Shown here in pieces: positions 4,787-54,998 of a stretch of DNA of 64,000 nt. The position numbers and the translations under genes were made by a program. Within the stretch, counting starts at the first letter, position 1. Each line of letters starts with the position of its first letter. The notes beneath the pieces were generated by a model. It did not search any database. It was not told where the DNA came from and worked only from the letters and a program-made list of their open reading frames with translations. Origin of the DNA: Stegostoma tigrinum (Eukaryota); NCBI RefSeq assembly GCF_030684315.1, contig NC_081396.1:2108001-2172000 (forward strand). The letters are read 5' to 3'.

Positions 4787-4820
4787 GCTGACGTTTCGGG
4801 CCTAGACCCTTCATCAGAGA
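4787..4820 (-). ncRNA. Hammerhead-like motif, left arm of copy A
   Basis: Reverse complement of the 10171-10204 motif. Confidence 0.7.
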
Positions 4821-7800
4821 GGGGGATGGGGTGAGGCTTCTGGATTAAATAGGGAGAGAGTGGGAGGCAGACCAAAGATGGAGAGAAAAGAAGATAGGTG
4901 GAGAGAGTATAGGTGGGGAGATAGGAAGGGGAGAGGTCAGTCCAGTGAAGACGGACAGGTCAAGGAGGTGGGATGAGGTTAGCAGGTCGGAGATGGGGGT
5001 GCAGCTTGGGGTAGGAGGAAGGGAAGCGTGAGAGGAAGAACAGGTTAGGGAGGCAGAGACAGGTTGGACTGGTTTTGGGATGCAGTGGGTGGAGGGGAAG
5101 AGCTGGGCTGGTTGTGTGGTGCAGTGGGGGGAGGGGACGAATTGGGCTGGTTTAGGGATGCGGTGGGTGAAGGGGCGATTTTGAAGCTGGTGATGAACAC
5201 ATTGATGCCGTTAGACTGCAGGGTTTCCAGGCGGAATATGAGTTGCTGTTCCTGCAACCTTCGGGTGGCATCATTGCGGCACTGCAGGAGGCCCATGATG
5301 GGCATGTCATCGAAAGAATGGGAGGGGGAGTGGAAATGGTTTGCGACTGGGAGGTGCAGTTGTTTGTTGCGAACCGAGCGGAGGTGTTCTGCAAAGCGGT
5401 CCCCAAGCCTCCGCTTCGTTTCCCCAATGTAGAGGAGGCCACAACGGGTACAGTGGATGCAGTATACCACATTGGCAGATGTGCAGGTGAACCTCTGCTT
5501 AATGTGGAAAGTTATCTTGGGGCCTGGGTTCGGGTGAGGGAGTAGGTGTGGGGGCAAGTGTAGCATTTCCTGCGGTTGCAGCGGAAGGTGCCGGGTGTGG
5601 TGGGGTTGGAGGGCAGTGTGGAGCGAACAAGGGAGTCACGGAGAGAGGGTTCTCTCTGGAAAGCAGACAGAGGTGGGGATGGAAAAATGTCTTGTGTGGT
5701 GGGGTCGGACCTCTATACCCAGAATATTCAGACCCTTCAGCAGCATTTCTCCCTGCGAGTCCTGAAACAGACACTCGTAGCCATGCGCCGGCGCCTCCAC
5801 AGACTGCAATCCAGCCTGCCCCAGCTCAGAGCCTCCCTCTCCCAGAACTGCAAAGGGCCTCTGCTGTTTTTTATTCTCCGCAGGATCCACAGACTGAACA
5901 CCCAGTTTAACTCAGCTTTACTGGACACCAAAAATCGCAAGTACAACAAACTCACTGACCCCTGCCACCCACAAGAGGATTCCTGCGCCTCCCAAATCCC
6001 GAGTCTGTCCCTGCCCCTCCCCGGCCATGCACCCGCCGCCATTGACCATGAGGACACGGCCGGAGACTGCACCGATGACGTCACATCCGCCTCCGCCGGC
6101 CACACCACTTCCGGGACCGCGGCTGCAGTCACCACCTCCACTTCCAGTTACAACACCTCACACACCAGCCTCACCGCAGCTGCTGCCGCCCACCACGATA
6201 CTCCAACCGCCGACGGAAGACAGCCCACGGCCGATGCCGATGGAACCCTGCCCACGGCCGACGACCTCATCGGTCCGCCCACAACCTCCACAGCCAGCAA
6301 CCCCAGAGGAGACAGCCACACTGAACCCTGCCGCATCTTCACCATGCCCCCAGACCTCCGACTGACTGAGGACGAACGGTCAGTCCTTAGTAAGGGGCTC
6401 ACCTTTGTCCCCCTACAACCACACATCAACGAATACCAGTCACGATTGGACATAGAGCATTTTTTCCGCCACCTTCGCCTCCAGGCCTACTTCTTCAAGC
6501 AGGAGCCTGAGCCTCCCTCCACTGACCCCTTCACCCGCTTCAAACACAAGTCCTCCTCCTGGACACCACCCCCAGGCCTCCTACCCTCCTTCGACCTCTT
6601 CATCTCCAACTGCCGTCGAGACATTAACCGCCTCAACCTCTCCACCCCTCTCACCCACTCCAACCTCTCCCCTGCAGAACGGGCAGCCCTCCCCTCCCTC
6701 CGCTCCAACCCCAACCTCACCATCAAACCCCAAGACAATGGTGGCGCAGTGGTAGTATGGCGCACTGACCTCTACATCGCCGAGGCCAGACGCCAACTCT
6801 CCAACACCACCTCCTGCCGCCCACTCGATCATGACGGGTGTGGTGGTGTTGGAGGGCAGTGTGGAGCGAACAAGGGAGTCACGGAGAGAGTGGTCTCTCC
6901 AGAAAGCAGACAGGGGTGGGGATGGAAAAATGTCTTGGGTGGTGGGGTCGGATTGTAGATGGCGGAGGTTTCGGAGGATGATGCGTTGTATCCAGAGGTT
7001 GGTGGGGTGGTGTGTGAAAACGAGGGGGATTCTCTTAGGGCGTTTGTGGCGGGGGCGGGGTGTGAGGGATGTGTTGCGGGAAATACTGGAGACGCGGTCA
7101 AGGGCGTTGTCGATCACTGTGGGGGGAAAGTTGCGGTTCTTGAAGAACTTGGATATCTGGGATGTGCGTGAGTGGAATGTCTTATCGTGGGAGCAGATGC
7201 GGCGGAGGCGGAGGAATTGCGAATAGGGGATGGAATTTTTGCAGGAGGGTGGGTGGGAGGAGGTGTATTCTAGGTAGCTGCTGTAGTCAGTGGGCTTGAA
7301 ATGGACATCGATTACAAGCTGGTTTCCTGAGATGGACACTGAGAGATCCAGGAAGGTGAGGGATGTGCTGGAGATGGCCCAGGTGAACTGAAGGTTGGGG
7401 TGGAAGGTGTTGGTGAAGTGGATGAATTGTTCGAGCTCCTCTGGGGAGCAAGAGGCGGCGCCGATACAGTCATCAAATGTACCGGAAGAAGAGGTGGGGT
7501 TTGGGGCCTGTGTAGGTGCGGAAGAGGGACTGTTCCACGTTACCTACAAAGAGGCAGGCATGGCTGCGGCCCATGCGGGAGCCCATGGCCACCCCCTTAG
7601 TCTGTAGGAAGTGGGAGGAGTCAAAACAGAAGTTGCTGATGGTGAGGACGAGTTCGGCTAGGCGGATGAGGGTGTCGGTGGAGGGGGACTGGTCGGGCCT
7701 GCGGGACAGGAAGAAGCGGAGGGCCTTGAGGCCATCTGCATGTGGAATGCAGGTGTATAGGGACTGGACGTCCATGGTGAAGATGAGGTGTTGGGGGCCA

Positions 7801-10170
7801 GGGAATTGGAAGTCCTGGAGGAGGTGGAGGGCGTGGGTGGTGTCACGGACGTACGTAGGGAGTTCGTGGACCAAAGGGGAGAAAATGAAGTCCAGATAGG
7901 TGGAGATGAGTTCGGTGGGGCAGGAGCAGGCTGAGACGATGGGTCGACCAGGTCAGCCACGGTTGTGGATTTTGGGAAGGAGATAGAAACGGGCCGTGCT
8001 GGGTTGGGGAACAATGAGGTTGGAGGCTGTGGGTGGGAGGTCCCCTGAGGTGATGAGGTCATGAATGGTGTTGGAGATGATGGTTTGGTGCTCGGGTGTG
8101 GGGTCATGATCGAGGGGGCGGCAGGAGGTGGTGTTGGAGAGTTGGCGTATGGCCTTGGCGATGTAGATGTCAGTGCGCCATACTACCACGGTGTCACCAT
8201 TGTCTTGGGGTTTGATGGTGAGGTTGGGGTTGGAGCGGAGGGAGGGGAGGGCTGCCCGTTCTGCAGGGGAGAGGTTGGAGTGGGTGAGAGGGGTAGAGAG
8301 GTTGAGGCGGTTAATGTCTCGAAGGCAGTTGGAGATGAAGAGGTCGAGGGAGGGTAGGAGGCCTGGGGGTGATGTCCAGGAGGAGGACTTGTGTTTGAAG
8401 CGGGTGAAGGGGTCAGTGGAGGGAGGCTTAGGCTCCTGGTTGAAGAAGTAGGCGTGGAGGCGAAGGTGGCGGAAAAACTGCTCTATGTCCAATCATGACT
8501 GGTATTCGTTGATGTGTGGTTGTAGGGGGACAAAGGTGAGCCACTAACTAAGGACTGACCGTGCGTCCTCAGTCAGTGGGAGGTCTGGGGGCATGGTGAA
8601 GATGCGGCAGGGTTCAGTGTGGCTGTCTCCTCTGGGGTTGCTGGCTGTGGAGGTTGTGGGCGGACCGATGAGGTCGTCGGCCGTGGGCGGGGTTCCGTTG
8701 GCTTCGGCCGTGGGCAGGGTTCCGCTGGCGTCGGCCGTGGGCGGGGTTCCGTCGGCGTCGGCCGTGGGCGGGGTTCCGTCGGCGGTTGGAGTATCGTGGT
8801 GGGCGGCAGCAGCTGCGGTGAGGCTGGTGTGTGAGGTGTTGTAACTGGAAGTGGAGGTTGTGACTGCAGCAGCGGTCCCAGAAGTGGTGTGGCCGGCGGA
8901 TGCGGATGTGACGTCATCGGTGGAGTCTCCGGCCGTGTCCTCATGGTCAATGGCGGCGGTGCATGGTCGGTGAGGAGCAGGGACAGACTTGGGATTTGGG
9001 ATGCGCAGGAATCCTCTTGTGGGTGGCAGCGGCCAGTGAGTTTGTTGTACTTCCGATTTTTGGTGTCCAGTAAAGCTGAGTAAAACTGGGTGTTCAGTCT
9101 GTGGATCCTGCGGACAATAAAAAACAGCAGAGGCCCTTTGCAGTTCTAGGAGAGGGAGGCTCTGAGCTGCAGCAGGCTGGATTGCAGTCTGTGGAGGTGC
9201 CGGTGCATAGCTGCGAGTGTCTGTTTCAGGACTCGCAGGGAGAAACTCTTCTGAAGGGTCTGAATATTCTGGGTATAGAGGTCCGACCCCACCACCCAAG
9301 ACATTTTTCCATCCCCACCCCTGTCTGCTTTCCAGAGAGAACTCTCGCTCCGTGACTCCCTTGTTCGCTCCACATTGCCCTCCAACCCCACCACACCCGG
9401 CACCTTCCCCTGCAACCGCAGGAAATGCTACACTTGTCCCGACACCTCTTCCTTCACCCCTATCCCAGGCCCCAAGATGACTTTCCACATTAAGCAGAGG
9501 TTCACCTGCACATCTGCCAATGTGGTATACTGCATCCACTGTACCCGTTGTGGCCTCCTCTACATTGGGAAACCAAGCGGAGGCTTGGGGACCGCTTTGC
9601 AGAACACCTCCGCTCAGTTCGCAACAAACAACTGCACCTCCCAGTCGCAAACCATTTCCACTCCCCCTCCCATTCTTTAGATGACATGTCCATCATGGGC
9701 CTCCTGCAGTGCCACAATGATGCCACGCGAAGGTTGCAGGAACAGCAACTCATATTCCGCTTGGGATCCCTGCAGCCTAATGGCATCAATCTGGACTTCA
9801 CCAGCTTCAAAATCTCCCTTTCCCCCAACACATTCCTAAACCAGCCCAGTTTGTCCCCTCCCCCCACTGCACCACACAACCAGCCCAGCTCTTCCCCACC
9901 ACCCACTGCATCCCAAAACCAGTCCAACTTGTCTCTGCCTCCCTAACCTGTTCTTCCTCTCACCGATCCCTTCCTCCTACCCCAAGCCGCACCCCCATCT
10001 CCTACCTACTAACCTCATCCCACCTCCTTGACCTGTGCGTCTTCCCTGGACTAACCTCTCCCCTCCCTACCTCCCCGCCTGTACTCTCTCCACCTATCTT
10101 CTTTTCTCTCCGTCTTTGATCCGCCTCCCCCTCTCTCCATATTTATTCCAGAACCCTCACCCCATCCCCC

Positions 10171-10204
10171 TCTCTGATGAAGGGTCTAGGCCCGAAACGT
10201 CAGC
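10171..10204 (+). ncRNA. Minimal hammerhead ribozyme-like motif of the Penelope terminus
   Basis: CTGATGA-a-GGGTCTAGGCCC-GAAA-CGTC: both core boxes, stem II and a palindromic ACGT stem III. Minimal hammerheads are an established feature of Penelope terminal repeats. Confidence 0.7.
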
Positions 10205-10941
10205 TTTTGTGCTCCTGAGATGCTGCTTGGCCTGCTGTGTTCATCCAGCCTCACATTTTGTTGTCTTGAATGTTTCATATAACCAGTCCAATGGAGCCCC
10301 GAACATCCTGCCAAGCTAAATGCTTTGCACACCCTGCACGATCTGTCAGCACCAAGAATCGTGCCCCACCAAGGCCCTGCACGATATCCCACTCTTCTCC
10401 ATTATGTTGATCAAGAATTGCTCTTCCACATGTTCTTATGAAAGAACGTAAGGTTAAATAAAAAATAAGAGCATGTGAAATATGAGCCGGAATCGACGCT
10501 TCCAGTGTGCCCCATTGAGATTAATTCACTGCGCAGATTACAGCATCCGGCTAAATTCACTTGGTCCACAGCAGGGCACACGGTGATCACGAAATTCAGA
10601 TCATGAGCCTTTTTTTCTGGAAACAGTGGCAGTCTGAGGATACGAAATGGGTGGAATACTCCAATTCGAGACGATCACACAACATAACGCCTGCTGTTTG
10701 AACTCCTCCAGTTCCAAGCCTGACTAATGCTGACCAATGTTTTTGTTTCTGTTCAAGGTTTTCAGACGGAAACGAAAAGCTTTACCCAACAGTTGTCAAC
10801 TTCTTGATCACAAGTCTGTTTTGTTTGATAAACACTACTGCATTTCCTAGCGTTCATGTTGTTCCCCACTCACACTTCCACATGACTAATTGTCTTACCT
10901 TCCTTGTTTTCACTTGCTGTGTGCTTGCCGCTACCTTTCAG

Positions 10942-11297: not shown

Positions 11298-12712
11298 GAA
11301 CACCTATTAAAATCAAGGATTAGCTCAAGTAAATGCAAGTCATTGCTTGCTTGACAATCTATGCAGGGAATCATAAACAAACATGTACAGAGGGGCAAGC
11401 GTAGTCACTTCACGCACAGTCATTCAGTATGGTCATAATTGACCTGGTCACGTTTTCTACTCACCTCATCATTAATATTTCTCTCTCTTGGTTATCAAGG
11501 CTCAGGCCACTTCAACAAGAAAAATATGATCTGACTCTGCTTTGACTTACTCTTGGCAAAGAATAAAACTACAAACACTCACAATTATCCTTAATTTAAA
11601 ACGAAGAGTCAACAGCATTGCCTATTTCTGGTGCCACATTTAATCCGAACCAGGTAATTCAGCATTATTATTTTTCTGAAGGATTTTATTCACTGTTATT
11701 ATTTCACACCAATAGATGAACATTTTAATATAGGAAGCTAAATGCAGATGGTTTACGAACTGAATTTTCATTATAACAGCCAGTCTGCCTGCAGAAAATT
11801 CCTCTGAGCCCCCTGATCGCCAGTGCACCAAATAACCACGAAACCAGCATCTGCTGTTGCAATCTATATTGTCTTATGTTGATTTGTTAAAACTTCTTTC
11901 TTCATTCACGCTATGGACATTAACATTATTAATACATTTTTCCAGATCTAAAATCAAACGACACGGATTTCGTTTACAGTCCCACAAATTAAAAGATAAA
12001 ATAATAACGTCCGTCTGTGAAACTGAAAAAGCAAATCACTTGAAAATTATCGTGATTGCTGCTCTCTCCACCTTGCACCTTCAAGCATCCCCAATTCCGG
12101 CGGACGGAATGACCCTGATGCCAGAAACGTTTCTTCCTCAGTTTAAACTTCCATTCAGATAAAGTTAAAATACACTGTCACAATTACTGTAAACATATAG
12201 CAATGGAATGTCATACGTAATACCTGTGGTGTTTTGAGACCAGGTCACAGATTGTAAATGCAACCATTACTTTTTTCAAAATATCAGCTGATTGCAGCTC
12301 AGAGTCACCACGCTGATGTCAAATTTAGAGACTGCAGAACACCCCGAACNNNNNNNNNNNNNNNNNNNNNNNNNNNNNNNNNNNNNNNNNNNNNNNNNNN
12401 NNNNNNNNNNNNNNNNNNNNNNNNNNNNNNNNNNNNNNNNNNNNNNNNNNNNNNNNNNNNNNNNNNNNNNNNNNNNNACTTGTTGACTTGATTTGATCAA
12501 CATCATAATTGTTCAGCCGATCTACTTTTCTGCTGAGCCAGAGGATTGGCTGCACGACAGAGCGATACAACCAGGAACAATGGGAGAATGTCTCAAACCG
12601 TTGCTTGGCATTGTTTCTATTCTCACTTAATATCTCATATTGGAAAAAGATTATTTTTCACTTAAAATTTGCTCCTAATTTAACAGTAACAGTGACGATA
12701 ATGTTGACAAAT

Positions 12713-13088
12713 ATGAGGCTGGTGTTGGCTGTTGTTTCTTTCTTACTGCATTTTATGCTCGATTGGAGACAGCAGAACCCATTGGAACAACCATTTGTTG
12801 AAATAACTGTTGAGGAGGCAAACAAAAGTCACACTAAGTTGTATTTTGTATTCAAACACGAAAGCATACTGGTACATTCAACGTCCCAGGCAGTTACCAT
12901 TGAGGCCATTTGAGTGCAGTGTGTCCACAGAAAACTGCCTTACAGATCTACTTTCTTCTTTGCTTTATAAAATTGACAAGATCACCGAACTAACAATCAG
13001 CACAATTTCCTCTTCCAAAAGTGTTATGTATCACTGTGCCCTGCAACCTACACCGATGCAGACATATCACGCATTCCACAAAAGAGCC
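12713..13088 (+). pseudogene. TRAV: TCR alpha/delta V pseudogene 2A (FR1 frameshift, decayed RSS)
   Basis: QNPLEQPFVEITVEE / KVTLSC...AYWYIQRPRQ...ELTISTISSSKSVMYHCALQP. Cys, Trp and YxC are present; the RSS is decayed (tacaccg...acaaaagagcc). Confidence 0.85.
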
Positions 13089-14569
13089 TACCGTGAGACT
13101 GCCCAGTAGAGTTCATCGGAGGGCACCATCACATCAACAAACAGAATTCACTCTGAACAATGAGACAACCATAAAACTTGTCAAAAGGTTATGATGCACA
13201 TAACGCTAGAGAAGAGCAGTCGAGCCTCGCCTGCATAATTAGTCACAGTTAATTCTGTTCATACAACCGATTTGCTTTGTAAATCGTCCTGAAATATTTA
13301 CTGCTATTCCATTCCAATCCTTCTCCAATTGAATCCATCAATCTTCTCTCCGTGCTGCACACAACATTGTAAAATCCTCCAGGTGAGTGGAGAGTACTCC
13401 CATACTTTCATGAGCTCTATGCTGCAGACGGTGACAGGCGTCAAGGAGACAAGATGTGAGATACTCGCTAATTCCTATCTTCTCAACTGCTGGTATAATC
13501 ACACTTATGTGGCTGCTCCAGTGTCTGCGGAAAGGGAACCCCCAGGATGTAGAAAGGGCTCTTTCAGAGAGGCAGTGGTATAGCAGCTCACCAAGAATAG
13601 TTGGGCTGTCTTTTGTTGAAGACGGTAATGTAAACGTTGCTTTAAACTATTCGAGGCGGGTTTGAACAGTATTCAGGCCTTGCTGCATTTGCACACAATA
13701 TCTGCTCAATATTGTACAAACATTAGCAAACAGGCAGACCTCTTAGAACCCAGGTCATAACAATGTAGTCAGTTCCCAAGAAAGGCTGCAAGCTCTCGAA
13801 AGCCCACAGGGCCTGAGAGCAGGGCATCTCTGCTGGCATGAGCCCTGTCAAGGAGCACCACTGAGGTCTGTACTTTCAGTCCCTGGCCAAAGTAGGAGAG
13901 AGTCTCATTGATGAAGTAAGTGAAAATAATGGGTTCATAACACTCGTTTGAGTAACCCCTGCAAACGCATCCTTGGAAAGAGATGACAGAACACCAACAA
14001 ACACTAACTATTTCATCTGTTCGAGATATGATTTGAAAAAGCTGAAATGTTAACCAATTTTATTTGACACATTGTACATGGTCAGGTCTCACGAACAAAG
14101 ATATATCCTGTAGTCCGAGATGTCAGTTGCGACACAGTTAAAATGACAGTTCTGCAAATTATGGTCACAGAAAATGTGCTGCAGTACTATGTCATGCGAT
14201 GCTGTCTTTTAAACATTGACTTTACGTTTCTTCACAAATATTGCGGAATGATTTTGGCTGGATTATTGGTCGATCAGAAAATTCTCATTCATAATTCCAG
14301 CCTGAATTCGGCAAATCACAAGTAGTACATATTTTGCTGCTTGAGGTTGTGTTCCTCAGCAATGTTACTTTTACAAACACGAATCATCAACTGATTATCG
14401 AACACAAAGAAAACAGGATAGGCGCTGAGAAAATATCCGATTGAAATTATGTGACAGGTGCCGTCAGGTGCACCAGAGGAATGATATGAAACAAATCTCC
14501 GTCCACAATCCCTCTTTCCCAATGTCATGGTGCGCCAATTAAGAACAGAATACATTCTCCTGTACTGTT

Positions 14570-14868
14570 CCATAGAATCCCTACAGTATGGAAACAGGAC
14601 CTTGAGTCCAACAAGTCCACGCCAACATTCAAAACGTCCCACCCAGTTCAATCCCCCTAAAACCCACCTGTCCTACACATTCCTGAAAACTTTGGAAAAT
14701 TTAGCATCGCCAATCCACCCAGGCAGCTCATCATTGGACTGTGGCAGGATAACAGAGCACCAACGCAGACAAGGAGAGAAAGTGCAAACTTCACTCAGAC
14801 AGTTGCCCAAGGGTGGAATCGAACCCGGGTTCCTGGAGCTGGCAGTAGTGTTAAACAACGAGCCACTG
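14570..14868 (-). mobile_element. tRNA-derived shark SINE (HE1/V-SINE type)
   Basis: B box GGTTCGATTCC on -, V-domain-like core (gtgcaaact..cagacag on +) and a CR1-like tail ending ggattctatg. Confidence 0.75.
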
Positions 14869-15590
14869 GAATTGCCCCCTGTTCAAAAGAAAATGTCATG
14901 TCATGGAATATACGGCAGGAAGCAGCTACATGATAAATTTCCTCTCGACTGAGGCTGAGTCTGGACAAAACATGCAGGGAATGAATATGAATGTAAGTGT
15001 GGTCCAAGTGGGCTTTCTCTCCCTCTCACTAATCCCTGCAGTGTTGGAAATTTGCCATTTGGTAGTTAATTAAAACAAGATCAAATTGAGACATCTCCAC
15101 GCCGGTAGCAAAAGGACAACAGCATTGTGCAATGACTTACATGAAACATGAAACAACCTGAGCGGCTTTGACACCGCAGATTTTACGAGGATGTTTCCAC
15201 TTCTTGGAGAATCTAAAACTTTCGGACAAGTTTCAAGACATCACCAATCTCAGTGACCCCAGGTAACTGATTTGAGCGAGGTCGTACTGTGTCCTGAATC
15301 CAACAGTGATTGGTTGACTGTTAAGATAAGAAGTGAGAAATCAACGAATCACATCATGGTGGGACGTCCCTCTGTTTCCAAAGAAGTGAAGGTTATCCGT
15401 GGTATGAGCTCAATGTCTTATATAAGACGAAAACTGTCGGAGTCTTTCGGTGTACTGGTGTTGTCATAACTCACAGCCAGAAGGTTCTGCGTTTGAGTCA
15501 CGTACAATCGGTGGAAGATAAGATTTCTAAACAGATTAAACAGAAAATATTAAGACAAAGTTCCATCTTTTTTGTTTTTAGTTTGATCAG

Positions 15591-16041
15591 ATGAAAACTG
15601 ATGTCATGGGTACCCTGAGAACATTACTGATAATCGTTACTATTCTGCATGGTGAGGCTGAACTAAAACCAGCACTGAGTATTATTTTGGTTACATTTAC
15701 TGACATGCTTTCAACAACTTTTTCAAATTTGTTACAGGAACGAGTAGTCAAGATTCAGTTTTTCAGAGCCCACCTCATTTATCGGCAGAGGAAGGACAAA
15801 TGGTAATGTTGAACTGTAGTTACGAATCGTCGGGTGCTCCTATTCTCTTCTGGTACGTCCAGTATCCTGGGGAAGCTCCGAGATATTTACTGAAGAGGTA
15901 CAAGAATGAAGACGCGGACAGCTCACCAGATTTCCGTGACCGGTTTTCTGCCAATTTGGACAAAGTCAATAAAGTGGTTCCTTTGAGAATTAATGAAATC
16001 CGTCTGTCTGACTCAGCCAGCTATCACTGTGCTATGAGTAA
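15591..16041 (+). CDS. TRAV: Apparently functional TCR alpha/delta V segment, copy A: leader exon 15591 (or 15606)-15651, V exon 15738-16041
   Basis: Leader MGTLRTLLIIVTILH-g|gtgag, 86-nt intron, tacag|GTSSQDSVFQSPPHLSAEEGQMVMLNCSYESSGAPILFWYVQYPGEAPRYLL...RFSANLD...LSDSASYHCAMS. Open frame followed by an intact RSS. Confidence 0.95.
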
Positions 16042-16080
16042 CACACTGATACAGAGACCCAGACAGCCCGAACAAAAACC
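16042..16080 (+). other. 23-bp-spacer recombination signal sequence
   Basis: CACACTG + 23 nt + ACAAAAACC (consensus nonamer). Confidence 0.96.
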
Positions 16081-16329
16081 TGAAAGGCTCTCTTCCCTCC
16101 CTTGTCTGTATCAGATCTATAACTTTTACTACGAATTGTTAATATGATCAAAACCACAGTACAAAGAGCACATCACATTTTGGAACTCTTTCGATTGTGC
16201 AGAATGCAGGTCATTCAACATAAACTGCCTGCTTCAAGCAGCTGCGAGTTTTATTCATGGTCAGCGAGCAACTCGTTTAATAGAATGTTGTGGTAGTGTT
16301 ACCATAACAGTTTACCATAACCCATCAGT

Positions 16330-16605
16330 AACTGAAATCAAAGATAAGCTGCATTGAAAGAAAACACCCGATGGACACTTCTATTTTGCACAGAGCGTTC
16401 GTGTGTGGAATGAATTGCCAGCAAATGTGGGTACAGTAACAGTGTTTAAAAGACATTTGTTTAAACACTTGGATGATGAAAAAAAGTGATTAGGGATATA
16501 GGACAAGCACAGTCAGTTGGGAAAAGTTTAGTTTCGGATTACGCTCGATGTAGACAGTTTGAAACGAAGGGTCTGTTTTCGAGCCATGTCAGTCGGTTAC
16601 TCTAA
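16330..16605 (+). mobile_element. CR1 3'-end fragment (also ~55250-55520)
   Basis: ttgcacagagcg..tgtggaatgaattgccag..tttaaaagacatttg..gaagggtctgttt resembles a CR1 tail. Confidence 0.6.
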
Positions 16606-17008
16606 TTGAATACAAAAGCAGTTTCACTATCATTAACTGCTCCAAAGCCGCTTCGTTGTTCAGTCAAGTTAATTTCATTCCAAAATTGATAGATCAATGG
16701 ATGCTAAAGGAAACAATTGTCGTAAAGCTGTCAAGTTTGTGAGAGTTGTACAAACTTCACTGAGTGCAACGGCAAGTTCAGTGAACTAAATGACCTTCTG
16801 CAGTTCCTGTTTTCAACGTTGTATTGACAATAGATCTGACGTAATGGACTGGAGAACAAAGCAACTGTGAGATGATTGGAGGCACATTTGCGAATCTGTC
16901 AGAAATATCCATCTGGCAGGGAGACAAGATATGACTCAATGTCAGCTCTGAGATGAGCCAATTCAGCTTCATCTCGCTCTCTGCATTTCTGCCATCAGTT
17001 CTGCAAAC

Positions 17009-17540
17009 TTGTCAACCCTTATTTTTTCCTCATCCCTCACTGCTGTAGCCCTTTTAACTGGTAAGATCTTAAGTTGAAAAATGCAAACCTTTCATCGACA
17101 CTCGTCTTATCAGCATTTCTCTCTATTTTCAACAAATTCCCTGGCCTTGATGATATTAATTAGAATAAAACACAATTGCGGGCCTTTATATAAAAATTAC
17201 TTCTTTTTTATGTAGATGTTAAATGTGCAGACTCTGTATCACAGAAGCAGATTAAAATGATACAGTTTGAAGGAGACTTAGTGACGATTAATCTCAGCGG
17301 TTCTGCCTGAGCTGAAAACTGTTGCTTACAATTGTATCGTCAGGATATTGGTAAATCTCCTACATTCCTTTACTACATCCATACTTTTGGCGATGTTTCC
17401 AGGTCAAAATGGCGTTGGACTTAGGTTTTCTGCATTTCTGGACATTTCGGAAACTGAGGAGAATTTCACCATTGGTGAGCTGTGGCTGTCTGACTGCAGT
17501 CCATGACTGTGGGCGGAAAAACACTGCAGAGACAAAAACC
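17009..17540 (+). pseudogene. TRAV: TCR alpha/delta V pseudogene 4A: leader 17009-17060 (start is TTG), V exon 17216-17519
   Basis: (L)STLIFSSSLTAVALLT-g|gtaag...tgtag|DVKCADSVSQKQIKMIQFEGDLVTINLS..*..LQLYRQDIGKSPTFLYYI / GVGLRFSAFLD...FTIGELWLSD / AVHDCG, then AACACTG and ACAAAAACC. Only fragments appear in the ORF track. Confidence 0.88.
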
Positions 17541-18739
17541 AAAATGAACTTTGTATTAAAACATTATTGCAACGGTCGGAAAGTGAGAAAACTCTGGACA
17601 AACTTCAGTTTTATAAATATTACCAAAATGAACTGAATTCATATCAATCTAGATCGTTGGTAAGCCAAGAGCCACAGATGCAACATTGAGTAAAGTGGCT
17701 TCTGATCTCTTAAGATTGCATACATTCCAAATACAAATTGAAAGTTGTGATTAGAGAATGTGCTCCATTTTGTAAATTAGATGTATCAGAAAAGCAATTC
17801 TCCCCGAATTATCTGACATGGTGAATCAGCAGTTCACAACGGGACACTAAACAAAGTTCACTTGGTCGTACGAATGATGTAGGATGAAAAATGATCTCAA
17901 AACTACCATTTGAATTCACGAACCAGCTAAAGCCACAGTGCAGGTCTGGCTTTCTCAGCTTTTCCCGTAACCTGAGGTTTGGTGACCACCAGGAGAACCA
18001 ACACCAGTAGTCTCTCGAAGTAAAGAAGACCTCTGTGGTTCTCCAGGACTGTACACTTTTATTTACATATTTGGTAAATGGAGAAGGAAATGAAAAGTAT
18101 CATGGAATGCTCTCGACAAGGAGAACAAAGAGTTTGCTTTTATATGGACTTGTATTTAATGGTTTCAGATAACTCAAAGGGGTTCTAATATTTTGTCGCA
18201 AACATGAGCATCAAGTTTTCACTTTCGATTTTCGATACAGTTGGCTACTTGATAATCTGTATCGGAACCCTGAACACACCACAGATATCCCAATTCAATG
18301 TTCTTTTTTTCTCTACCTCCGTGGTCACCAGTCCCTTATGCTACTTTGGAGTAGACCCTATCCACACTTTCGATCATGAACCCATACTTCTTGATGTCTG
18401 CAGGTGCCTTTAACATTGAACGGTATTCAATCAGATTATTTTAATGATGCAGATATTACCCAAATGGCAAGCTGCTCAATGCTGATATTTCAAACTAAAA
18501 CATACTTCCAACTTTGTTGTGAATTTCACTTTCGAAATAACGATAAATTGTATGGCTGCTTCCAGAACAGTTGTGAAAATTCTCAGAAATTCCCAAGAAA
18601 AACGCTGTCATTTCATTCCCTGGAAAGTTGATACAATTATCAAAACCAGTGTTCGGTGTGAATGATTTCGCATCTTGTTGATTTGGATTGTGCTTGGTCT
18701 TCGCATGCACAGCTACGTGTCTCACCTGCTGTTCCAAAG

Positions 18740-19132
18740 ACGTCCGAATAGGCAGCAGCTGTGACCCAGAAACTTTCAGTCGTTCTTGCAGAAGGGTTTA
18801 TTTTTAGTTTTCTCTCTCTCGTTTTCGAGGCTAATTTGGACAATAATAGATCGCGGTATCAGACAGCTGCAACTCCGAGATGGTTAATTGGTGCAACTTG
18901 TCTGCTAGCTCAACTGTGTCAGAAAACCTGGTCTGAGGGAAATATGCTTTAAATGAGTCTCCGTCGCTTGTGCTCCTCCAGAGTATGAACTCTGGCAGTC
19001 TTCCTGGGTTTGATATAATGAGTAAAAGCTTTGGCAGTTTAGGTGCAGTTTAAAGCCAAGTATTTTACCTCTGCCTGTGTGAGCAAGGAATCCCACAGTG
19101 TAAAGAGTTTCCATTGCTCAGATGTGAAAAGT
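18740..19132 (+). pseudogene. Possible highly decayed V relic (also 57658-58050)
   Basis: AAVTQKLSVVLAEG...RYQTAATPRWLI...AMYF (copy B)...CVS; perfect CACAGTG at 19094, 23 nt, then a weak gtgaaaagt. Confidence 0.35.
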
Positions 19133-20924: not shown

Positions 20925-21830
20925 TTGGGCTGAGGTGGACAAGTTTAAAATATATAACACCAGGTGACAGTCCAAATGGCTTATTTGAAATCACAAGCGT
21001 TCTTAGCGCTGCTTCTTCATCAGTTGCAGTGAAGAGAAGTACACAGGCACAGAGTAATCAAAATATCACACGAAAGGAGTGAGTGGAGTGTTGGCAGACT
21101 GGATAAGTCTCTGCAGGTGATAAAAAAAAGTCAGTCGGTGTGAATAAAGTAGCAACAGCTGAAAAAAATGTGAACGGTTAAAGAATAATCCGATTAATTG
21201 GGACAGAAAGATTGCTTCAAACAATATTAGAATTATGTGGTGCTGAAGACCAATGAAATGAGTGGAATAACATGATAGGTACGAAGGTCGCATGTCGAGA
21301 GTCTAACCAAAGTAACAAGTGATCTAAAATTGTGAAAATTAATTAAGATAGTGATCATAACAAGTCGTCGAGATGATGGCGTCAGAACAGAGCAGTAAGG
21401 AAGATTTTGCAGATGTGGAACAGTGTGGTATGATTGCATGAAGAGTGGCATGAACTCAAAAACACGGTTGAGGCTGTATTTACGTGTACAAAACTTTGCT
21501 GTGAGTTTCTGCTCAGCAATACAGCATTGTCAGGTATCTCAAAAGCGACCTTGGATGAGGCTTATTAGAAGATCAGATGCTAATAGTCATTGACCATTGA
21601 CGCATCCCCTGACTGGTGGATGGAGTTGGGAGGTCGGTTGGGGGGGTGGCATTCCAGTCTGTTGATTGATCTGCAGTGCCCATTCATCCGTTGGCAGAAA
21701 GTCTGCATGCTGTTGCCAATATACAATTCTTCAGGGCGTCTTTGCATGCAGCGTCTGTTTTATTTGACAACATTGACCAAATCACATGAGTGTCTGTCGT
21801 GCATGTGATGGCTGCTGTTGCCATGTGTGA
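20925..21830 (-). mobile_element. Old relic of a second Penelope family (also ~59845-60750)
   Basis: Minus strand reads HSCDLVNVV...C.Q..PE.LYIGNSMQTFCQRMNGH (GIY-YIG); decayed CTGATGA..GAA hammerhead near 20995-21025. Confidence 0.75.
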
Positions 21831-30000: not shown

Positions 30001-30020
30001 GAACCCTGCTCGTTGCGCCA
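30001..30020 (-). promoter_or_regulatory. Primer binding site complementary to tRNA-Ser(UGA)
   Basis: Plus strand gaaccctgctcgttgcgcca versus the vertebrate tRNA-Ser(TGA) 3' end GAACCCTGCTCGCTGCGCCA (from memory, 1 mismatch); 2 nt from the LTR end. Confidence 0.85.
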
Positions 30021-30022
30021 AA

Positions 30023-41692: not shown

Positions 41693-42215
41693 GGCAGTGT
41701 GGTGACTTGGAGGTTCGCACTGTTGCCCCACAGTGCTTAGAACACAGAACACAGAACAATACAGCACAGAACAGGCCCTTCACCCCTCAATGTTACCCAA
41801 TCTGTGAACTAATCCATGCCCCTCCCCCTACACCATCCCATCATCATCCATATGCTTATCCAAGGACTGTTTAAATGCCCCTGATGTGGCTGAGTTAACT
41901 ACATTTGCAGACAGGGCGTTCCACGTACCACTACGCATTTTCAATATCCACGTGAGGGAGCTGTATGATGTTTGCACATTCTTCTCATGTTTTTGTGGGT
42001 TTCCACCGGGTGTCCCAGTTTCAACCCACAGTCCTCAGCTTTGCAGGATAAGTAAATAAGCAATGCTAAATTCTCTGTAGTGGCCATGAAAAAGTAGGCA
42101 AGGGGAATTAGCAATGGGAAATGCAGAGATAGGGTAAGGGGGATGGATCTAGGTGGGAAGCTCTTCATAGAGTTGGCGTGGATTTTTTGGGCTCAATGGC
42201 TTTTTTGTACACTGT
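41693..42215 (+). mobile_element. Shark SINE interrupted by a reverse CR1 tail (41740-41935)
   Basis: Head ggcagtgtggtgac..cactgttgcc.cacag; body tgtttgcacattc...gggtttcc.ccgggtg; (agaacac)n tail. Only the head and part of the tail remain in copy A (4677-4784). Confidence 0.65.
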
Positions 42216-42689
42216 ACGCAGTCTCCAGTGAATGGATCAGCAGCTCGTGGCGTCACACAGCACACAACTGCTTCGAAACAGACAACTGTCAAAACCCAAA
42301 ATGAAAGCAAAGTGCCGGGAAAAGGACAATAAAGTTGCGTTAAAAGACGTTTCCACTACTTTTGAAGAACGACCAAAAATGCTAAAATGTTTGCACAATC
42401 AAATCAGCCTCATTGAACGCAACGGATATATATAACTGAAAAAAGGAAACAGTTCCAGAAACCAGAAAAAGCTTCTGATAACAGAATGACGCCTCAGTAA
42501 AGTAAAGTGCTTGTTTTGAGGCCTCACCAAACTAGTAGGGCTTGAATGAAATCTTTCTGGGATGAAATACATGAGATACAATAACCTCACAGTTCAGTTT
42601 CTGAGAAAAGCAAGGTCTTTGCAGATTTGAATGGAGACATTTCAACAGTGCAACCACATCTCAAAGTTCAGTTCCATGCAAAATTCAGA

Positions 42690-42972
42690 AGTAGAATCCG
42701 TGCAGTGTTGGGACAGGCCCTTCAGCCGAACTAGTCAACAACTGCCCTCAAAGCCTCTCATCCAGACACATGCCCCGATTCTACGCATCTCTACCCCCTA
42801 TATCCTATTTAGAATGGCCAATTCAACTCGCTTAATCAGCTCTGGACAGCGGGACGAAATCCATACAGACACACGGTGAAGTGCAAACTCCACACAGACA
42901 GTCGCCCAAGTTGGGACTGAACCCGGATGTGTACTTTTGTGAGACAGTGCTTACCGCTGGGCCACTGTACCG
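42690..42972 (-). mobile_element. Shark SINE
   Basis: gtgcaaactccacacagacagtcgccc V-domain core on +. Confidence 0.7.
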
Positions 42973-42975
42973 CAC

Positions 42976-43046
42976 AGAAAGGACAGGATTTGATCCTGCC
43001 ACTTCACACGTACAAAGCAAGCTCTCGGTAATTTGAGCTAATTCCC
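42976..43046 (-). pseudogene. Decayed tRNA-Ala-like pseudogene
   Basis: Minus strand GGGAATTAGCTCAAATtaccGAGaGCTtGCTT...GGATC resembles vertebrate tRNA-Ala GGGGAATTAGCTCAAATGGTAGAGCGCTCGCTT (from memory). Confidence 0.55.
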
Positions 43047-43400
43047 TTAACCTTGCAGCTGATTGCAACTGAGCTGTTCACTTTTACCAGTCACGTCTAA
43101 CTCAAATGAATGATTTAACTTTGCAAGTTTGACACAGATTGATGACTGCTGCTGGAAATGATAGATTGCATGTAAAAAAGAAATCAGTTGCCCAGACTTC
43201 ATTCTCTTCATGACGATTGGATAATCTAGTGTTCTGCCTCCTGCAGGTCCATTTTTCCATCAAAAAATCACAACCTTCCCCACCCAGATGAATGTGTCAT
43301 ATGAGAGATAATGGGAACTGCAGATGCTGGTGAATCCAAGACAACAAAATGTGAGGCTGGATGAACACAATAGGCCAAGCAGCATCTCAGGAGCACAAAA

Positions 43401-43434
43401 GCTGACGTTTCGGGCCTAGACCCTTCATCAGAGA
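43401..43434 (-). ncRNA. Hammerhead-like motif, left arm of copy B (a second copy with core CCGATGA at 43840-43873)
   Basis: gctgacgtttcgggcctagacccttcatcag on the + strand. Confidence 0.7.
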
Positions 43435-46400
43435 GGGGGATGGGGTGAGGGTTCTGGAATAAATAGGTAGAGAGGAGAAGGCGGACCAAAGATGGAGAGA
43501 AAAGAAGATCGGTGGAGAGAGTACAGGCGGGGAGGTAGGGAGGGGAGACGTCAGTCCAGGGAAGACGGACAGGTCAAGGAGGTGGGTTGAGGTTAGTAGG
43601 TAGGAGATGGGGGTGCGGCATGGGGTAGGAGGAAGGGATGGGTGAGAGGAAGAACAGGTTAGGGAGGCAGAGAGAGCTTGGACTGGTTTTGGGATGCAGT
43701 GGGTGGAGGGGAAGAGCTGGGCTGGTTGTGTGGTGCAGTGGGGGGAGGGGACGAACTGGGCTGGTTTAGGGATGCCAAGATAATAAAATGTGAGGCTGGA
43801 TGAACACAGCAGGCCAAGCAGCATCTCAGGAGCACAAAAGCTGACGTTTCGGGCCTAGACCCTTCATCGGAGAGGGGGATGGGGAGAGGGAACTGGAATA
43901 AATAGGGAGAGAGGGAGAGGCGGACCGAAGATGGAGAGTAAAGAAGATAGGTGGAGAGAGTATTGGTGGGGAGGTAGGGAGGGGATAGGTCAGTCCAGGG
44001 AAGACGGACAGGTCAAGGAGGTGGGATGAGGTTAGTAGGTAGCTGGGGGTGCGGCTTGGGGTGGGAGGAAGGGATGGGTGAGAGGAAGAGCCAGTTAGGG
44101 AGGCAGAGACAGGTTGGACTGGTTTTGGGATGCAGTGGGTGGGGGGGAAGAGCTGGGCCGGTTGTGTGGTGCAGTGGGGGGAGGGGACGAACTAGGCTGG
44201 TTTAGGGATGCAGTAGGGGAAGGGGAGATTTTGAAACTGGTGAATTCCACATTGATACCATGTGGCTGCAGGGTTCCCAGGCGGAATATGAGTTGCTGTT
44301 CCTGCAACCTTCGGGTGGCATCATTGTGGCACTGCAGGAGGCCATGATGGAAATGTAATCTAAAGAATTAGAGGGAGCGTGAAAATGGTTTGCGACTGGG
44401 AGGTGCAGTTGTTTGTTGCGAACCAAGCGGAGGTGTTCTGCAAAGCGGTCCCCAAGCATCAGCTTGGTTTCCCCAATGTAGAGGAGGGCTCAACGGGTAC
44501 AGTGGATGCAGTATACCACATTGGCAGATGTGCAGGTGAACCTCTGCTTAATGTGGTAAGTCATCTTGGGGCCTGGGTTAGGGGTGAGTGAGGAGGTGTG
44601 GGGGTAAGTGTAGCATTTCCTGCGGTTGCAGGGGAAGGTGCCGGGTGTGGTGGGGTTGGAGGGCAATGTGGAGCGAACAAGGGAGTCACGGAGAGAGAGG
44701 TCTCTCTGGAAAGCAGACAGGGGTGGGGATGGAAAAATGTCTTGGGTGGTGGGGTCGGACCTCTACACACAGAATATTCAGACCATTCAGAAGTGTTTCT
44801 CCCTAGGAGTCCTGAAACAGACACTCGCAGCCATGCGCCGGCACCTCCACAGACTGCAATCCAGCCTGCCGCAGCTCAGAGCCTCCCTCTCCCAGACCTG
44901 CAAAGGGCCTCTGCTGTTTTTTATTGTCCGCAGGATCCACAGACTGAACACCCAGTTTTACTCAGCTTTACTGGACACCAAAAATCTTCAGTACAAAAAA
45001 CTCACTGGCCCCTGCCACACACAAGAGGATTCCTGCGCCTGCCAAATCCCGAGTCTGTCCTTGCCCCTCGCCCACCATGCACCCGCCGCCCTTGACCATG
45101 AGGACACGGCCGGAGACCCCACCGATGACGTCTCATCCGCATCCGCCGGCCAACTGCTTCCGGGACCGCTGCTGCAGTCACCACCTCCACTTCCAGTCAC
45201 AACACCTCACACACCAGCCTCACCGTAGCTGCTGCCGCTGACCCCGATACTCCAACCGCCGACGGAACCCCGCCCACGGCCGACGCCGACGGAACCCTGC
45301 GCACGGCCGACGCCAACGGAACCCCGCCCACGACCGACGACCTCATCAGTCCGCCCACAACCTCCACAGCCAGCAAGCCTCGAGGAGACAGCCACACTGA
45401 ACCCTGCCGCATCTTCACCATGCCCCCAGACCTCCCACTGACTGAGGACGAACGGTCAGTCCTTAGTAAGGGGCTCACCTTTGCCCCCCTACAACCACAC
45501 ATCAACGAATCCCAGTCACGATTGGACATAGAGCAGTTTTTCCGCCACCTTCGCCTCCACGCCTATTTCTTCAACCGGGAGCCTAACCCTCCCTCCACTG
45601 ACCCCTTCACCCGCTTCCAAGACAAGTCCTCCTCCTGGACACCACCCCCAGGCCTCCTACTTTCCCTCGACCTCTTCATCTCCAACTGCCATCGAGACAT
45701 TAACCGCCTCAACCTCTCCACCCCTCTCACCCACTCCAACCTCTCCCCTGCGGAACGGGCAGCCCTCCCCTTCCTCCGCTCCAACCCCAACCTCACCATC
45801 AAACCCCAGACAATGGTGGCGCAGTGGTAGTTTGGCACACTGGGGGATTCTCTTAGGGCGTTTGTGGCGGGAGCGGGGTGTGAGGGATGTGTTGCGGGAA
45901 ATATGGAAGACGCGGTCAAGGGCGTTGTCGATCACTGTGGGGGGAAAGTTGCGGTTCTTGAAGAACTTGGATATCTGGGATGTGCGGGAGTGGAATGTCT
46001 TATCGTGGGAGAGGATGCGGCGGAGGCGGAGGAATTGGGAATAGGGGATGGAATTTTTGCAGGAGGGTGGGTGGGAGGAGGTGTATTCTAGGTAGCTGTG
46101 GGAGTCAGTGGGCTTGAAATGGACATCGATTACAAGCTGGTTTCCTGAGATGGAGACTGAGAGATCAGGAAGGTGAGGGATGTGCTGGAGATGGCCCAGG
46201 TGAACTGAAGGTTGGGGTGGAAGGTGTTGGTGAAGTGGATGAATTGTTCGAGCTCCTCTGGGGAGCAAGAGGCGGCGCCGATACAGTCATCAAATGTACC
46301 GGAGGAAGAGGTGGGGTTTGGGACCTGTGTAGGTGCAGAAGAGGGACTGTTCCACGTTACCTACAAAGAGGCAGGCATAGCTGGGGCCCATGCGGGTGCC

Positions 46401-48986
46401 CATGGCCACCCCCTTACTCTGTAGGAAGTGGGAGGAGTCAAAACAGAAGTTGCTGAGGGTGAGGACGAGTTCGGCTAGGCGGATGAGGGTGTCGGTAGCG
46501 GGGGACTAGTCGGGCCTGCGGGACAGGAAGAAGCGGAGGGGCTTGAGGCCATCTGCATGTGGAATGCAGGTGTATAGGGACTGGACGTTCATGGTGAAGA
46601 TGAGGTGATGGGGGCCAGGGAATTGGAAGTCCTGGAGGAGGTGGAGGGCGTGGGTGGCGTCACGGACGTAGGTAGGGAGTTCGTGGATCAAAGGGGAGAA
46701 AATGGAGTCCAGATAGGTGGAGATGAGTTCGGTGGGGCAGGAGCCGGCTGAGACGATGGTTCGACCAGGTCAGGCACGGTTGTGGATTTTGGGAAGGAGA
46801 TAGAAACGGGCCGTGCTGGGTTGGGGAACAAAGAGGTTGGAGGCTGTGGGTGGGAGGTCCCTTGAGGTGATGAGGTCATGAATGGTGTTGGAGATGATGG
46901 TTTTGTGCTCGGGTGTGGGGTCATGATCGAGGGGGCGGTAGGATGTGGTGTTGGAGAGTTGGCGTCTGGCCTCGGCGATGTAGAGGTCAGTGCGCCATAC
47001 TACCACAGTGTCACCATTGTCTGGGGGTTTGATGGTGAGGTTGGGGTTTGAGCGGAGGGAGGGGAGGGCTGCCCGTTCTGCAGGGGAGAGGTTGGAGTGG
47101 GTGAGAGGGGTGGAGAGATTGAGGCGGTTATTGTGTCAACGGAAGTTGGAGATTCAGAGGTCGAGGGAAGGTAGGAGGCCAGGGTGTGGTGTCCAGGAGG
47201 AGGACTTGTCTTGGAAGCGGGTGACGGGGTCAGTGGAGGGAGGGTTAGGATCCCGGTTGAAGAAGTAGGCGTGGAGGCGAAGGTGGCGGAAAAACTGCTC
47301 TATGTCCAATCGTGACTGGCATTCATTGATGTGTGGTTGTAGGGGGACAAAGGCGAGCCCCTTACCAAGGACTGACCGTTCGTCCTCAGTCAGTGGGAGG
47401 TCTGGGGGCATGGTGAAAATGCGGCAGGGTTCAGTGCGGCTGTCTCCTCTGGGGTTGCTGGCTGTGGAGGTTGTGGGCGGAGCAATGAGGTCGACGGCCG
47501 AGGGCGGGGTTCCGTTGGCGTCGGCCGTGGGCAGCGTTCCGTTGGCGTCGGCCGTGGGCGGGGTTCCGTCAGCGTCGGCCGTGGGCTGGGTTCCGTCGGC
47601 GGTTGGAGTATCGTGGTGGGCGGCAGCAGCTGCGGTGAGGCTGGTGTGTGAGGTATTGTAACTGGAAGACGAAGTGGTGACTGCAGCAACAGTCCCGGAA
47701 GTGGTGTGGCCGGCGGATGCGGATGTGACGTCATCGGTGGGGTCTCCGGCCGTGTCCTCATGGTCAATGGCGGCGGGTGCATGGTCGGGGAGGGGCAAGG
47801 ACAGACTCGGGATTTGGGAGGCGCAGGAATCCTCTTGTGGGTGGCAGCGGCCAGTGAGTTTGTTGTACTGAAGATTTTTGGTGTCCAGTAAAGCTGAGTA
47901 AAACTGGGTGTTCAGTCTGTGGATCCTGCGGACAATAAAAAACAGCAGAGGCCCTTTGCAGGTCTGGGAGAGGGAGGCTCTGAGCTGCGGCAGGCTGGAT
48001 TGCAGTCTGTGGAGGTGCCGGCGCATGGCTGCGAGTGTCTGTTTCAGGACTCGCAGGGAGAAACTCTTCTGAACGGTCTGAATATTCTGGGTGTAGAGGT
48101 CCGACCCCACCACACAAGACATTTTTCCATCCCCACCCCTGTCTGCTTTCCAGAGAGAACTCTCTCTCTGTGACTCCCTTGTTCGCTCCACACTGCCCTC
48201 CAACCCCACCACAACCTGCACCTTCCCTGCAACTGCGGGAAATGCTACACTTGCCCCCACACCTACTCCCTCACCCGAACCCAGGCCCCAAGATAACTTT
48301 CCACATTAAGCAGAGGTTCACCTGCACATCTGCCAATGTGGTATACTGCATCCACTGTACCCGTTGTGGCCTCCTCTACATTGGGGAAACCAAGCTGATG
48401 CTTGGGGACCGCTTTGCAGAACACCTCCGCTTGGTTCGCAACAAACAACTGCACCTCCCAGTCGCAAACCATTTCCACTCCCCCTCCCATTCTTTAGATG
48501 ACATGTCCATTATGGGCCTCCTGCAGTGCCACATTGATGCCACCCGAAGGTTGCAGGAACAGCAACTCATATTCCGCTTGGGAACCCTGCAGCCTAATGG
48601 TATCAATGTGGACTTCACCAGCTTCAAAATCTCCCTTTCCCCCACCGCATCCCTAAACCAGCCCAGTTCGACCCCTCCCCCCACTGCACCAAACAACCAG
48701 CCCAGCTCTTCCCCTCCACCCACTGCATCCCAAAACCAGTCCAAGCTGTCTCTGCCTCCCTAACCTGTTCTTCCTCTCACCATCCCTTCCTCCTACCCCA
48801 AGCCGCACCCCCATTTCCTACCTACTAACCTCATCCCACCTCCTTGACCTGCCCGAATTCCCTGGACTGACCTCTCCCCTCCCTACCTCCCCGCCTGTAC
48901 TCTCTCAACCGATCTTCTTTTCTCTCCATCTTTGGTCCGCCTCCCCCTCTCTCCCTATTTATTCCAGAACCCTCACCCCATCCCCC

Positions 48987-49020
48987 TCTCTGATGAAGGG
49001 TCTAGGCCCGAAACGTCAGC
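48987..49020 (+). ncRNA. Hammerhead-like motif, right arm of copy B
   Basis: ctgatgaagggtctaggcccgaaacgtcagc. Confidence 0.7.
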
Positions 49021-49757
49021 TTTTGTGCTCCTGAGATGCTGCTTGGCCTATTGTGTTCATCCAGCCTCACATTTTGTTGTCTAGAATGTGTCATATAACC
49101 AGTCCAAAGGAGCCCCGAACATCCTGCCAAGCCAAATGCTTTGCACACCCTGCACGATCTGTCAGCACCAAGAATCGTGCCCCACCAAGGCCCTGCACGA
49201 TATCCCACTCTTCTCCATTATGTTGATCAAGAATTGCTCTTCCACATGTTCTTATGAAAGAACGTAAGGTTAAAAAAAAAATAAGAGCATGTGAAATATG
49301 AGCCGGAATCGACGCTTCCAGTGTGCCCCATTGAGATTAATTCACTGCGCAGATTACAGCATCCGGCTCAATTCACTTGGTCCACAGCAGGGCACACGGT
49401 GATCACGAAATTCAGATCATGAACCATTTTTTCTGCAAACAGTGACAGTCTGAGGATACGAAATGGGTGGAATACTCCAATTCAAGACGATCACACAACA
49501 TAACGCCAGCTGTTTGAACTCCTCCAGTTCCAAGTCTGACTAATGCTGACCAATGTTTTTGTTTCTGTTCAAGGTTTTCAGACTGAAACGAAAAGCTTTA
49601 CCCAACAGTTGTCAACTCCTTGATCACAAGTCTGTTTTGTTTGATAAACCCGACTGCATTTCCTAGCGTTCATGTTGTTCCCCACTAACACTTCCACATG
49701 ATTAATTGTCTTACCTTCCTTGTTTTCACTTGCTGTGTGCTTGCCGCTACCTTTCAG

Positions 49758-54959: not shown

Positions 54960-54998
54960 CACACTGATACAGAGACCCAGACAGCCCGAACAAAAACC
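54960..54998 (+). other. 23-bp-spacer RSS
   Basis: CACACTG + 23 nt + ACAAAAACC. Confidence 0.96.

Follow-up and report, generated by a model that had tools for sequence, protein, structure and literature searches.

The human Y palindrome P6 has arms of about 100 kb that are >99.9% identical, with mean conversion tracts of 2 kb and a GC bias; its arms diverge more slowly than its spacer, and conversion is commoner there than inversion (PMC3723533; this and the other sources given by PMC number are cited for the parts of them that were accessible). Conversion between the two LTRs of a retrotransposon (PMC7251063) and homogenisation of neighbouring Alus (cited in PMC3670932) have also been described, and intergenic inverted repeats of Caenorhabditis have arms up to 99.7% identical, for which the accessible text proposes selection (PMC1803023). 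Insertions of Penelope-like elements (PLEs) are reported to contain a partial tandem, an inverted truncated copy, a one-sided tail of 30-40 bp and a target duplication (PMC8557442), the first three of these also according to the available part of PMC3846280, and a CX2-5CxxC linker motif defines the Neptune/Nematis clades (PMC8557442, in part). Our literature searches joining Penelope with palindrome, inverted repeat or gene conversion found no report for Penelope palindromes, most subscription papers being beyond our reach.

The window, the whole 64,000-nucleotide stretch of Stegostoma tigrinum DNA analyzed here, is a tandem duplication with a period of about 37-39 kb (1-25082 versus 36988-64000). 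A broken 7-transmembrane receptor gene is present in each unit, along with a Penelope-like palindrome and a T-cell-receptor alpha/delta-like V exon (unit A: 15704-16147, with a 23-bp-spacer signal at 16042-16080; unit B: 54622-55065, with its signal at 54960-54998). Divergence between the units falls from 2.9% (87/3040) to 0.8% (79/9561) at about 15520, just before the V exon (12478-25082 compared with 51389-64000), a drop that probably reflects a subsequent event between the units, either a long conversion or an unequal crossover. Transversions equal or outnumber transitions in six of the seven segments compared between the two units. LTR-like direct repeats (24641-25086 and 30023-30434; 83%) flank broken retrovirus-like frames, and Pfam gave no hit on three such frames inside 24641-30434. 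The flank at 49152-49340 occurs as three types in public short-read contigs (0, 5 and 18 differences), and thus more than two paralogous units probably exist.

In copy A, the left arm (AL, 4787..6835, plus strand) contains the 3' end of a minus-strand element followed by a plus-strand N-terminal ORF and the start of the RT, its outer end having been removed by a deletion. The spacer (6836..8102, minus strand) contains a broken RT core, and the right arm (AR, 8103..10268, minus strand) contains the start of the minus-strand ORF and the plus-strand linker, GIY-YIG domain and 3' end. A third copy of the RT-EN linker (121 bp; 6832..6952, minus strand) sits at the centre junction of A and is missing from B. 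The right target-site copy of A (10268..10280, plus strand) has one mismatch to that of B, and the left one is gone with the deletion. The insertion in copy B spans 43303-49083 between target-site copies of 12-13 bp (43290..43302 and 49084..49096, both plus strand). It consists of a one-sided 34-bp tail (43303..43336, minus strand), an extra 3'-end copy of about 440 bp (B0, 43337..43775, minus strand) in partial tandem with the left arm (BL, 43776..45842, plus strand), a spacer with the RT core oriented as in A (45843..46919, minus strand) and the right arm (BR, 46920..49083, minus strand). The junction of BL with the spacer is without 256 bp that A has across its centre junction (6768-7023), and A is without a counterpart of the B flank 41799-43302 and of the left end of B.

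The spacer and inner arms align to the shark PLE protein P0001 (69% identity; precomputed PF00078), which identifies a PLE-type RT, and the closest named proteins of the element come from sharks and rays. The endonuclease is of the GIY-YIG type, with a VVY...YIGET motif and 123 relatives, some of which have PF01541. Pfam scans of broken element fragments found no family in four of four, those over the broken element and ERV-like frames found none for seven of nine proteins, and Rfam gave no match at the gathering score. Between RT and EN, AR carries CNRRKCYTC, a CX2-5CxxC motif, which marks the Neptune/Nematis type and not Penelope/Poseidon in the strict sense. The partial tandem of B0 and BL, the inverted truncated copy, the 34-bp tail and the target duplication of 12-13 bp together form the layout of an EN+ PLE. 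Family depth in this organism lies 3-5 orders over flank depth, which shows great abundance but is not a copy number, and an exact-motif search for family DNA returned no matches in viral contigs and none in metagenome contigs. Near each 3' end lies a putative minimal hammerhead-like core with a small stem (folding z about 0); the core in BL (43829-43884) has one substitution, and AR, BR and B0 are identical over its 56 bases. The left end of A (4784-4787) stops 3 bases past the predicted hammerhead cut site, with a 2-base filler, which may be chance.

The same right junction and right target-site copy mark A and B as descendants of one insertion, and the four arms go back to one source, since letters that are rare in the family are common to all four (columns 1118, 1173, 1484 and 1191). 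We read the palindrome as formed at insertion, with which the target duplication enclosing the whole of B agrees. Each arm contains 1.1 kb of ORF antisense to its own 3' end, with the same junction (5709/5710), and a 121-bp overlap lies at the centre. Because this antisense ORF is present in both arms, the template was likely an already rearranged copy; it was likely produced by reading through an older head-to-head insertion, beginning in the short arm of that insertion, and this would agree with the idea of an antisense template in the accessible part of PMC3846280. If A and B were instead independent insertions, or if each left arm had been made from its own right arm after the duplication, sharing within a copy would date from birth. 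Penelope insertion by itself copies a single template into two similar arms (PMC8557442 and PMC3846280, in their available parts), the left ends and centre junctions differ between A and B, and a tree of the whole arms pairs them by copy. Even so, we find a birth origin very improbable and already largely refuted: right junction and target duplication are identical in A and B (the one mismatch aside), tail and target duplication enclose all of B, A and B both have the derived state in three of 13 spacer rows, and every difference at the ends amounts to one simple deletion. Furthermore, side-specific derived alleles (columns 1277 and 2114-2118) and alleles present in three arms contradict a single tree.

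Alignment of the four arms (AL 4787-6835, AR 8103-10268, BL 43776-45842, BR 46920-49084) gave 1971 ungapped columns, 228 of them variable: 190 singletons (AL 49, AR 34, BL 63, BR 44), 8 three-state columns and 30 two-by-two sites. Among these 30 informative sites, 15 group the arms by copy (AL=AR, BL=BR), 8 by side and 7 crosswise (AL=BR, AR=BL), and one 1-bp gap common to two arms is also crosswise. A preliminary description of this DNA had listed variants present in both arms of B and missing from both arms of A, and every variant that it quoted was found in its place. It had also described markers that changed sides, found in the left arm of A and the right arm of B, and a deviation from the left-to-left and right-to-right likeness predicted by simple duplication. 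From the outer to the inner end of the arm the classes run side, copy, cross, copy, side. The outer side block covers columns 225-545 (with one by-copy site inside, at 522), the first by-copy block columns 691-727 and the crosswise block columns 828-1011, with six successive sites and the gap. The second by-copy block (columns 1032-1956) has eleven sites interspersed with two side sites and one cross site, two of these three non-copy sites falling in a tandem repeat. The inner side block covers columns 2114-2118; in the side-specific cluster at the inner end (6744..6748, plus strand) the left arms keep GGAVV and the right arms have a common derived GDT. This clustering of classes was significant over all 30 sites (P-value = 0.0018), over 28 sites after exclusion of two in the 27-bp tandem repeat (P-value = 0.0002) and over 22 sites after neighbours within 5 bp were merged (P-value = 0.010).

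Recurrent mutation at hot sites could mimic such sharing. Four by-copy sites (of 15) involve a CpG in at least one arm, and the L of HLRLVRN, itself a CpG change, is found in 15/119 related proteins and is a weak marker alone. Simulations without exchange argue strongly against this explanation: 15 by-copy sites were reached in 0/1500 runs at each of four rate settings (0/6000), down to a gamma shape of 0.25, with by-copy means of 1.1-2.9 and a maximum of 10, and seven crosswise sites appeared in 0 to 2.4% of runs. The classes also lie in blocks and many of the shared changes are rare transversions, and we regard the chance of homoplasy as negligible, the idea being refuted unless rate variation goes far beyond that modelled. 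The whole-arm tree pairs the arms by copy, and AU tests rejected the side tree both over the full arm (p 0.04) and in two tracts picked after seeing the data, columns 551-780 (0.019) and 1021-2100 (0.011); on such post hoc tracts, successive tracts prefer different trees. The preliminary description had proposed a four-arm alignment with trees as its check, and by that measure the side tree falls overall and in two tracts, but it is the one preferred by the outer tract, non-significantly (AU p 0.10).

Derived states were polarized by the family majority in public short-read contigs (organism F; 40 of 354 rows), mapped on BR and part of AL, so that the site classes are covered unequally. The 25 BR arm rows comprise 15 changes found in BR alone (at one of them BL has changed differently), three derived in BL and BR, one in AR and BR, two in AL, AR and BR, one in AR, BL and BR, and three in all four arms. 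For the letters derived in BL and BR, the remainders in run X15 were 21/422,075, 36/14,262 and 39/43,157. In a second polarity set, where the absence of a row is unreliable, one of six rows is derived in AL and AR (position 5716; remainder 10/19,003). Of 115 related endonuclease proteins, two have the L of ETKLMLG and one has the M. At columns 1163, 1871, 1881 and 1912 the A state is derived, as judged more weakly from related proteins of other subfamilies at 60-85% identity. Two columns separated by 3 bp (1912 and 1915) show one change specific to A and one specific to B, each in both arms of its copy. Right-arm alleles that predate the duplication are unmoved at columns 1277 and 2114-2118 and stand in the left arm of one copy only at columns 1192, 1339 and 1511. 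In each copy, then, new alleles of its own have become fixed in the two arms, and older right-arm alleles are unmoved or half-spread, a pattern of patchy conversion. Changes at the polarized by-copy sites (13/15, counted by hand) were 9 G/C to A/T, 2 A/T to G/C and 2 C to G, in a small sample from a GC-rich source with some weak polarities. B0 and BR have four common letters missing from AR and BL.

Outside donors, either paralogous units with palindromes or cDNA or DNA of the family, might instead have overwritten patches of the arms and made most of the mosaic. Contigs contain at least three types of right flank, and at three sites a single left arm (BL or AL) retains the family letter against a derived letter in the remaining arms. 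In a comparison of five copies over 371 columns, 17 singletons belong to the outer part of BL. The pLTR of a PLE is nicked by the element's own protein (PMC11167929, accessible part), and the AL=BR run described below shows that exchange may cross units. However, such donors would bring common alleles, whereas the tested by-copy alleles are nearly absent from the family; in addition, the family depth of the spacer is far above that of the N-terminal arm region, yet the spacer has diverged only to the level of the flanks. We give this explanation a small chance.

The extent of exchange between the arms is limited. Within a copy, the arms differ by 5.3% (AL-AR) and 6.5% (BL-BR), and between copies by about 5.4-5.5% (AR-BR) and about 7.1-7.2% (AL-BL), so that same-copy arms (5.3%, 6.5%) are not closer overall than AR and BR (5.4%). 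Spacer and near flanks differ between A and B by 2.5-3.3% (spacer 3.3%), which is exceeded by the between-copy divergence of the arms (P-value 0.008 and 1e-5). The spacers of A and B are also more alike than the two arms of either copy. Decay of CpG was rejected as the cause of this faster divergence, non-CpG divergence still being 5.9% and 4.2% versus 3.0%. Over 1971 columns, arm identity is 94.7% in A and 93.5% in B, below the >99% of a homogenised palindrome of the sex-chromosome type. Derived alleles are present in both arms of one lineage, as they are in sex-chromosome palindromes, but the arms do not diverge less than the spacer. The proposal of homogenisation as in sex-chromosome palindromes therefore does not hold, with arms at 93.5-94.7% and not >99.9%, and diverging faster than the spacer; the word overstates a patchy exchange that leaves the arms 5.3% and 6.5% apart.

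Significant identical runs were found in only two of the six arm pairs, BL-BR and AL-BR. The BL=BR run of 190 bp (44807..44996, plus strand, versus 47863-48052) carries rare B-derived alleles and was matched in 0/3000 permutations; it is the clearest candidate for a conversion tract. The longest AL-AR run was 100 bp and not significant (P-value 0.29), and a P-value of 0.003 for an AL-AR fragment is inflated because the fragment spans the tandem repeat excluded elsewhere. In the outer 495 columns, AL and BL have 21 and 22 private changes versus 13 in AR and 10 in BR, roughly double, in a stretch beyond the range of the conversion model given below (columns 551-2137); the outer part of BL may come from another subfamily. 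Private changes of BR form clusters at 47131-47185 (8 in 55 bp) and 47655-47691 (6 in 37 bp). At the second of these, a contig from run X16 differs from BR at exactly six letters, a count by which these changes may be of recent origin or an error of the assembly.

The crosswise block lies at 5513..5695 of AL (plus strand; six sites and one gap, ~200 bp), with counterparts at 9296-9479 in AR, 44562-44745 in BL and 48114-48295 in BR. At its start lies the AL=BR identical run of about 152-153 bp (5420..5570, plus strand, versus 48238-48388; 14/3000, P-value 0.005). Within the block, AL and BR differ by 3.0% and AR and BL by 3.4%, which equals the age of the duplication and fits a true swap; a perfect run of 152 bp inside such a block has a P-value of about 0.03 at 3.3% divergence. 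Most of the polarized crosswise letters are derived in AL and BR (by the loose-end consensus and the linker copy), and only column 932 looks derived in AR and BL. The evidence from the AL=BR run leans towards a later conversion between AL and BR. The spacer has the same orientation in both copies, not the two orientations of a flip-flop; a single flip is thereby excluded, and the block needs two inversions or some other route. Conversion or flipping after the duplication had been suggested: arm-to-arm conversion is supported by rare derived alleles in both arms of A and of B, and simple flipping is not supported, given the common spacer orientation. In our judgement, which is all that these weights express, conversion between AL and BR falls a little short of an even chance as the source of the block, two successive inversions are somewhat unlikely, and recombined or collapsed haplotypes converted in opposite directions are unlikely. 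The perfect AL=BR run would fit between-copy conversion at least as well as two inversions.

An assembly artefact, through mis-polishing, mis-joining via shared stretches or the collapse of two haplotypes, would account for the mosaic differently. Four of the 21 public runs listed contain half of our 911 words, the best matching only 52-57%, and none of the tested runs has these haplotypes; the four are short-read contigs from at most two samples of one study and appear to represent other haplotypes than the assembled one. Among the matches listed there is no contig across a whole arm and no long exact arm contig, the A-type letter at 49369 is found in all mapped contigs, and both identical runs are about one short read in length. 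Record 28 of run X18 reaches across the point where 3' end and ORF are joined, but it has 28 letters to one side, too few to count as bridging, and its five differences fit BR or another arrangement equally. The window has three N runs, all outside the Penelope-like elements. Against an artefact, misplaced reads would erase private alleles or draw letters toward the family majority, whereas the 190 singletons are still present and the alleles in common are rare ones. The remainder, which is not letter-specific, is near single-locus depth at some shared sites, which suggests that those letters exist in organism F, and a swap by collapsed haplotypes would still require real conversions. Furthermore, the load of private changes tracks copy and not side: B arms have 51 versus 33 in A arms (P-value 0.06), and the B spacer has 21 versus 8 in A, of 36 with 7 unpolarized (P-value 0.02). 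Because arms and spacer of B both carry more private changes, the arms are assigned to the right copies. The idea that the by-copy block arose because AR and BL had traded places was rejected on the same count, 33 versus 51 following copy and swapped labels giving 43 versus 41 (P-value 0.06 only). We accord an artefact a slight probability.

Taken together, these results favour, with a probability of roughly 70%, arms that exchanged short patches by arm-to-arm gene conversion after the tandem duplication of one insertion. At insertion the two arms would have been the same or almost the same; later damage to one of them, either a break or a stalled fork, would be repaired on the inverted arm 1-5 kb off, in short tracts (boundaries down to 12 bp apart) that would never catch up with mutation, and the crosswise block would take one further step beyond conversion within a palindrome. 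A conversion-only model fits the numbers of by-copy sites, of side and cross sites together and of singletons (120 best runs out of 6000; columns 551-2137), with a median of 0.62 conversions per site per lineage (5-95%: 0.17-1.28) and wide ranges of tract length (18-456 bp) and of the arm mutation-rate multiplier (0.9-2.1); under it there would be no clear need for a higher mutation rate in the arms. Conversion within palindromes gave at least six crosswise sites in 0/120 accepted and 2/6000 runs overall. A more far-reaching reading makes Penelope head-to-head insertions self-editing palindromes, whose 2-kb arms, ~94% alike, convert near the scale of point mutation and toggle by repeated inversion, the crosswise block then having been left by an inversion that was later reversed. 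We find this doubtful; were it true, the very many shark insertions would offer a natural assay, across the genome, of how diverged inverted repeats recombine, and dating of Penelope insertions by arm identity would be undermined.

Conversion between arms is a known process, and it is milder here than the title of the preliminary description says. The locus offers a clean four-arm example in which short, fairly diverged inverted repeats left by a retrotransposon swap sequence with no evident function to preserve. Given such exchange, the likeness of the two arms is a poor guide to the age of a Penelope insertion, just as LTR identity is for LTR elements. The present evidence comes from the assembled sequence of one locus, and because the family is so abundant, the count of by-copy, by-side and crosswise sites could be run genome-wide.

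Compared with known systems, the palindromes are most like Neptune/Nematis EN+ PLEs in composition and layout, as described in the accessible parts of PMC8557442 and PMC3846280: they share the RT, the CX4CxxC linker and the C-terminal GIY-YIG domain, and also the partial tandem, the inverted 5'-truncated copy, the one-sided tail and the target duplication, but differ in that both arms contain 1.1 kb of ORF antisense to their 3' ends. Like P6, they have inverted arms around a single spacer, alleles found in both arms of one lineage and, probably, conversion as a commoner event than inversion, but here the arms are of 2.1 kb and 93.5-94.7% identical, the tracts are short and the arms diverge faster than the spacer (PMC3723533, in part). 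Kilobase arms, a short spacer, a symmetry that outlasts the sequence and a proposed conversion are shared with the Caenorhabditis repeats, as far as the available text goes (PMC1803023), although here the element is dead and its symmetry is decaying. As in LTR pairs and Alus, repeats made by retrotransposition have later swapped patches, which distorts dating based on identity (PMC7251063 and PMC3670932, in part); unlike LTRs, which are direct repeats (PMC7251063), those described here are inverted and Penelope-like, and their tandem duplication provides a four-arm test.
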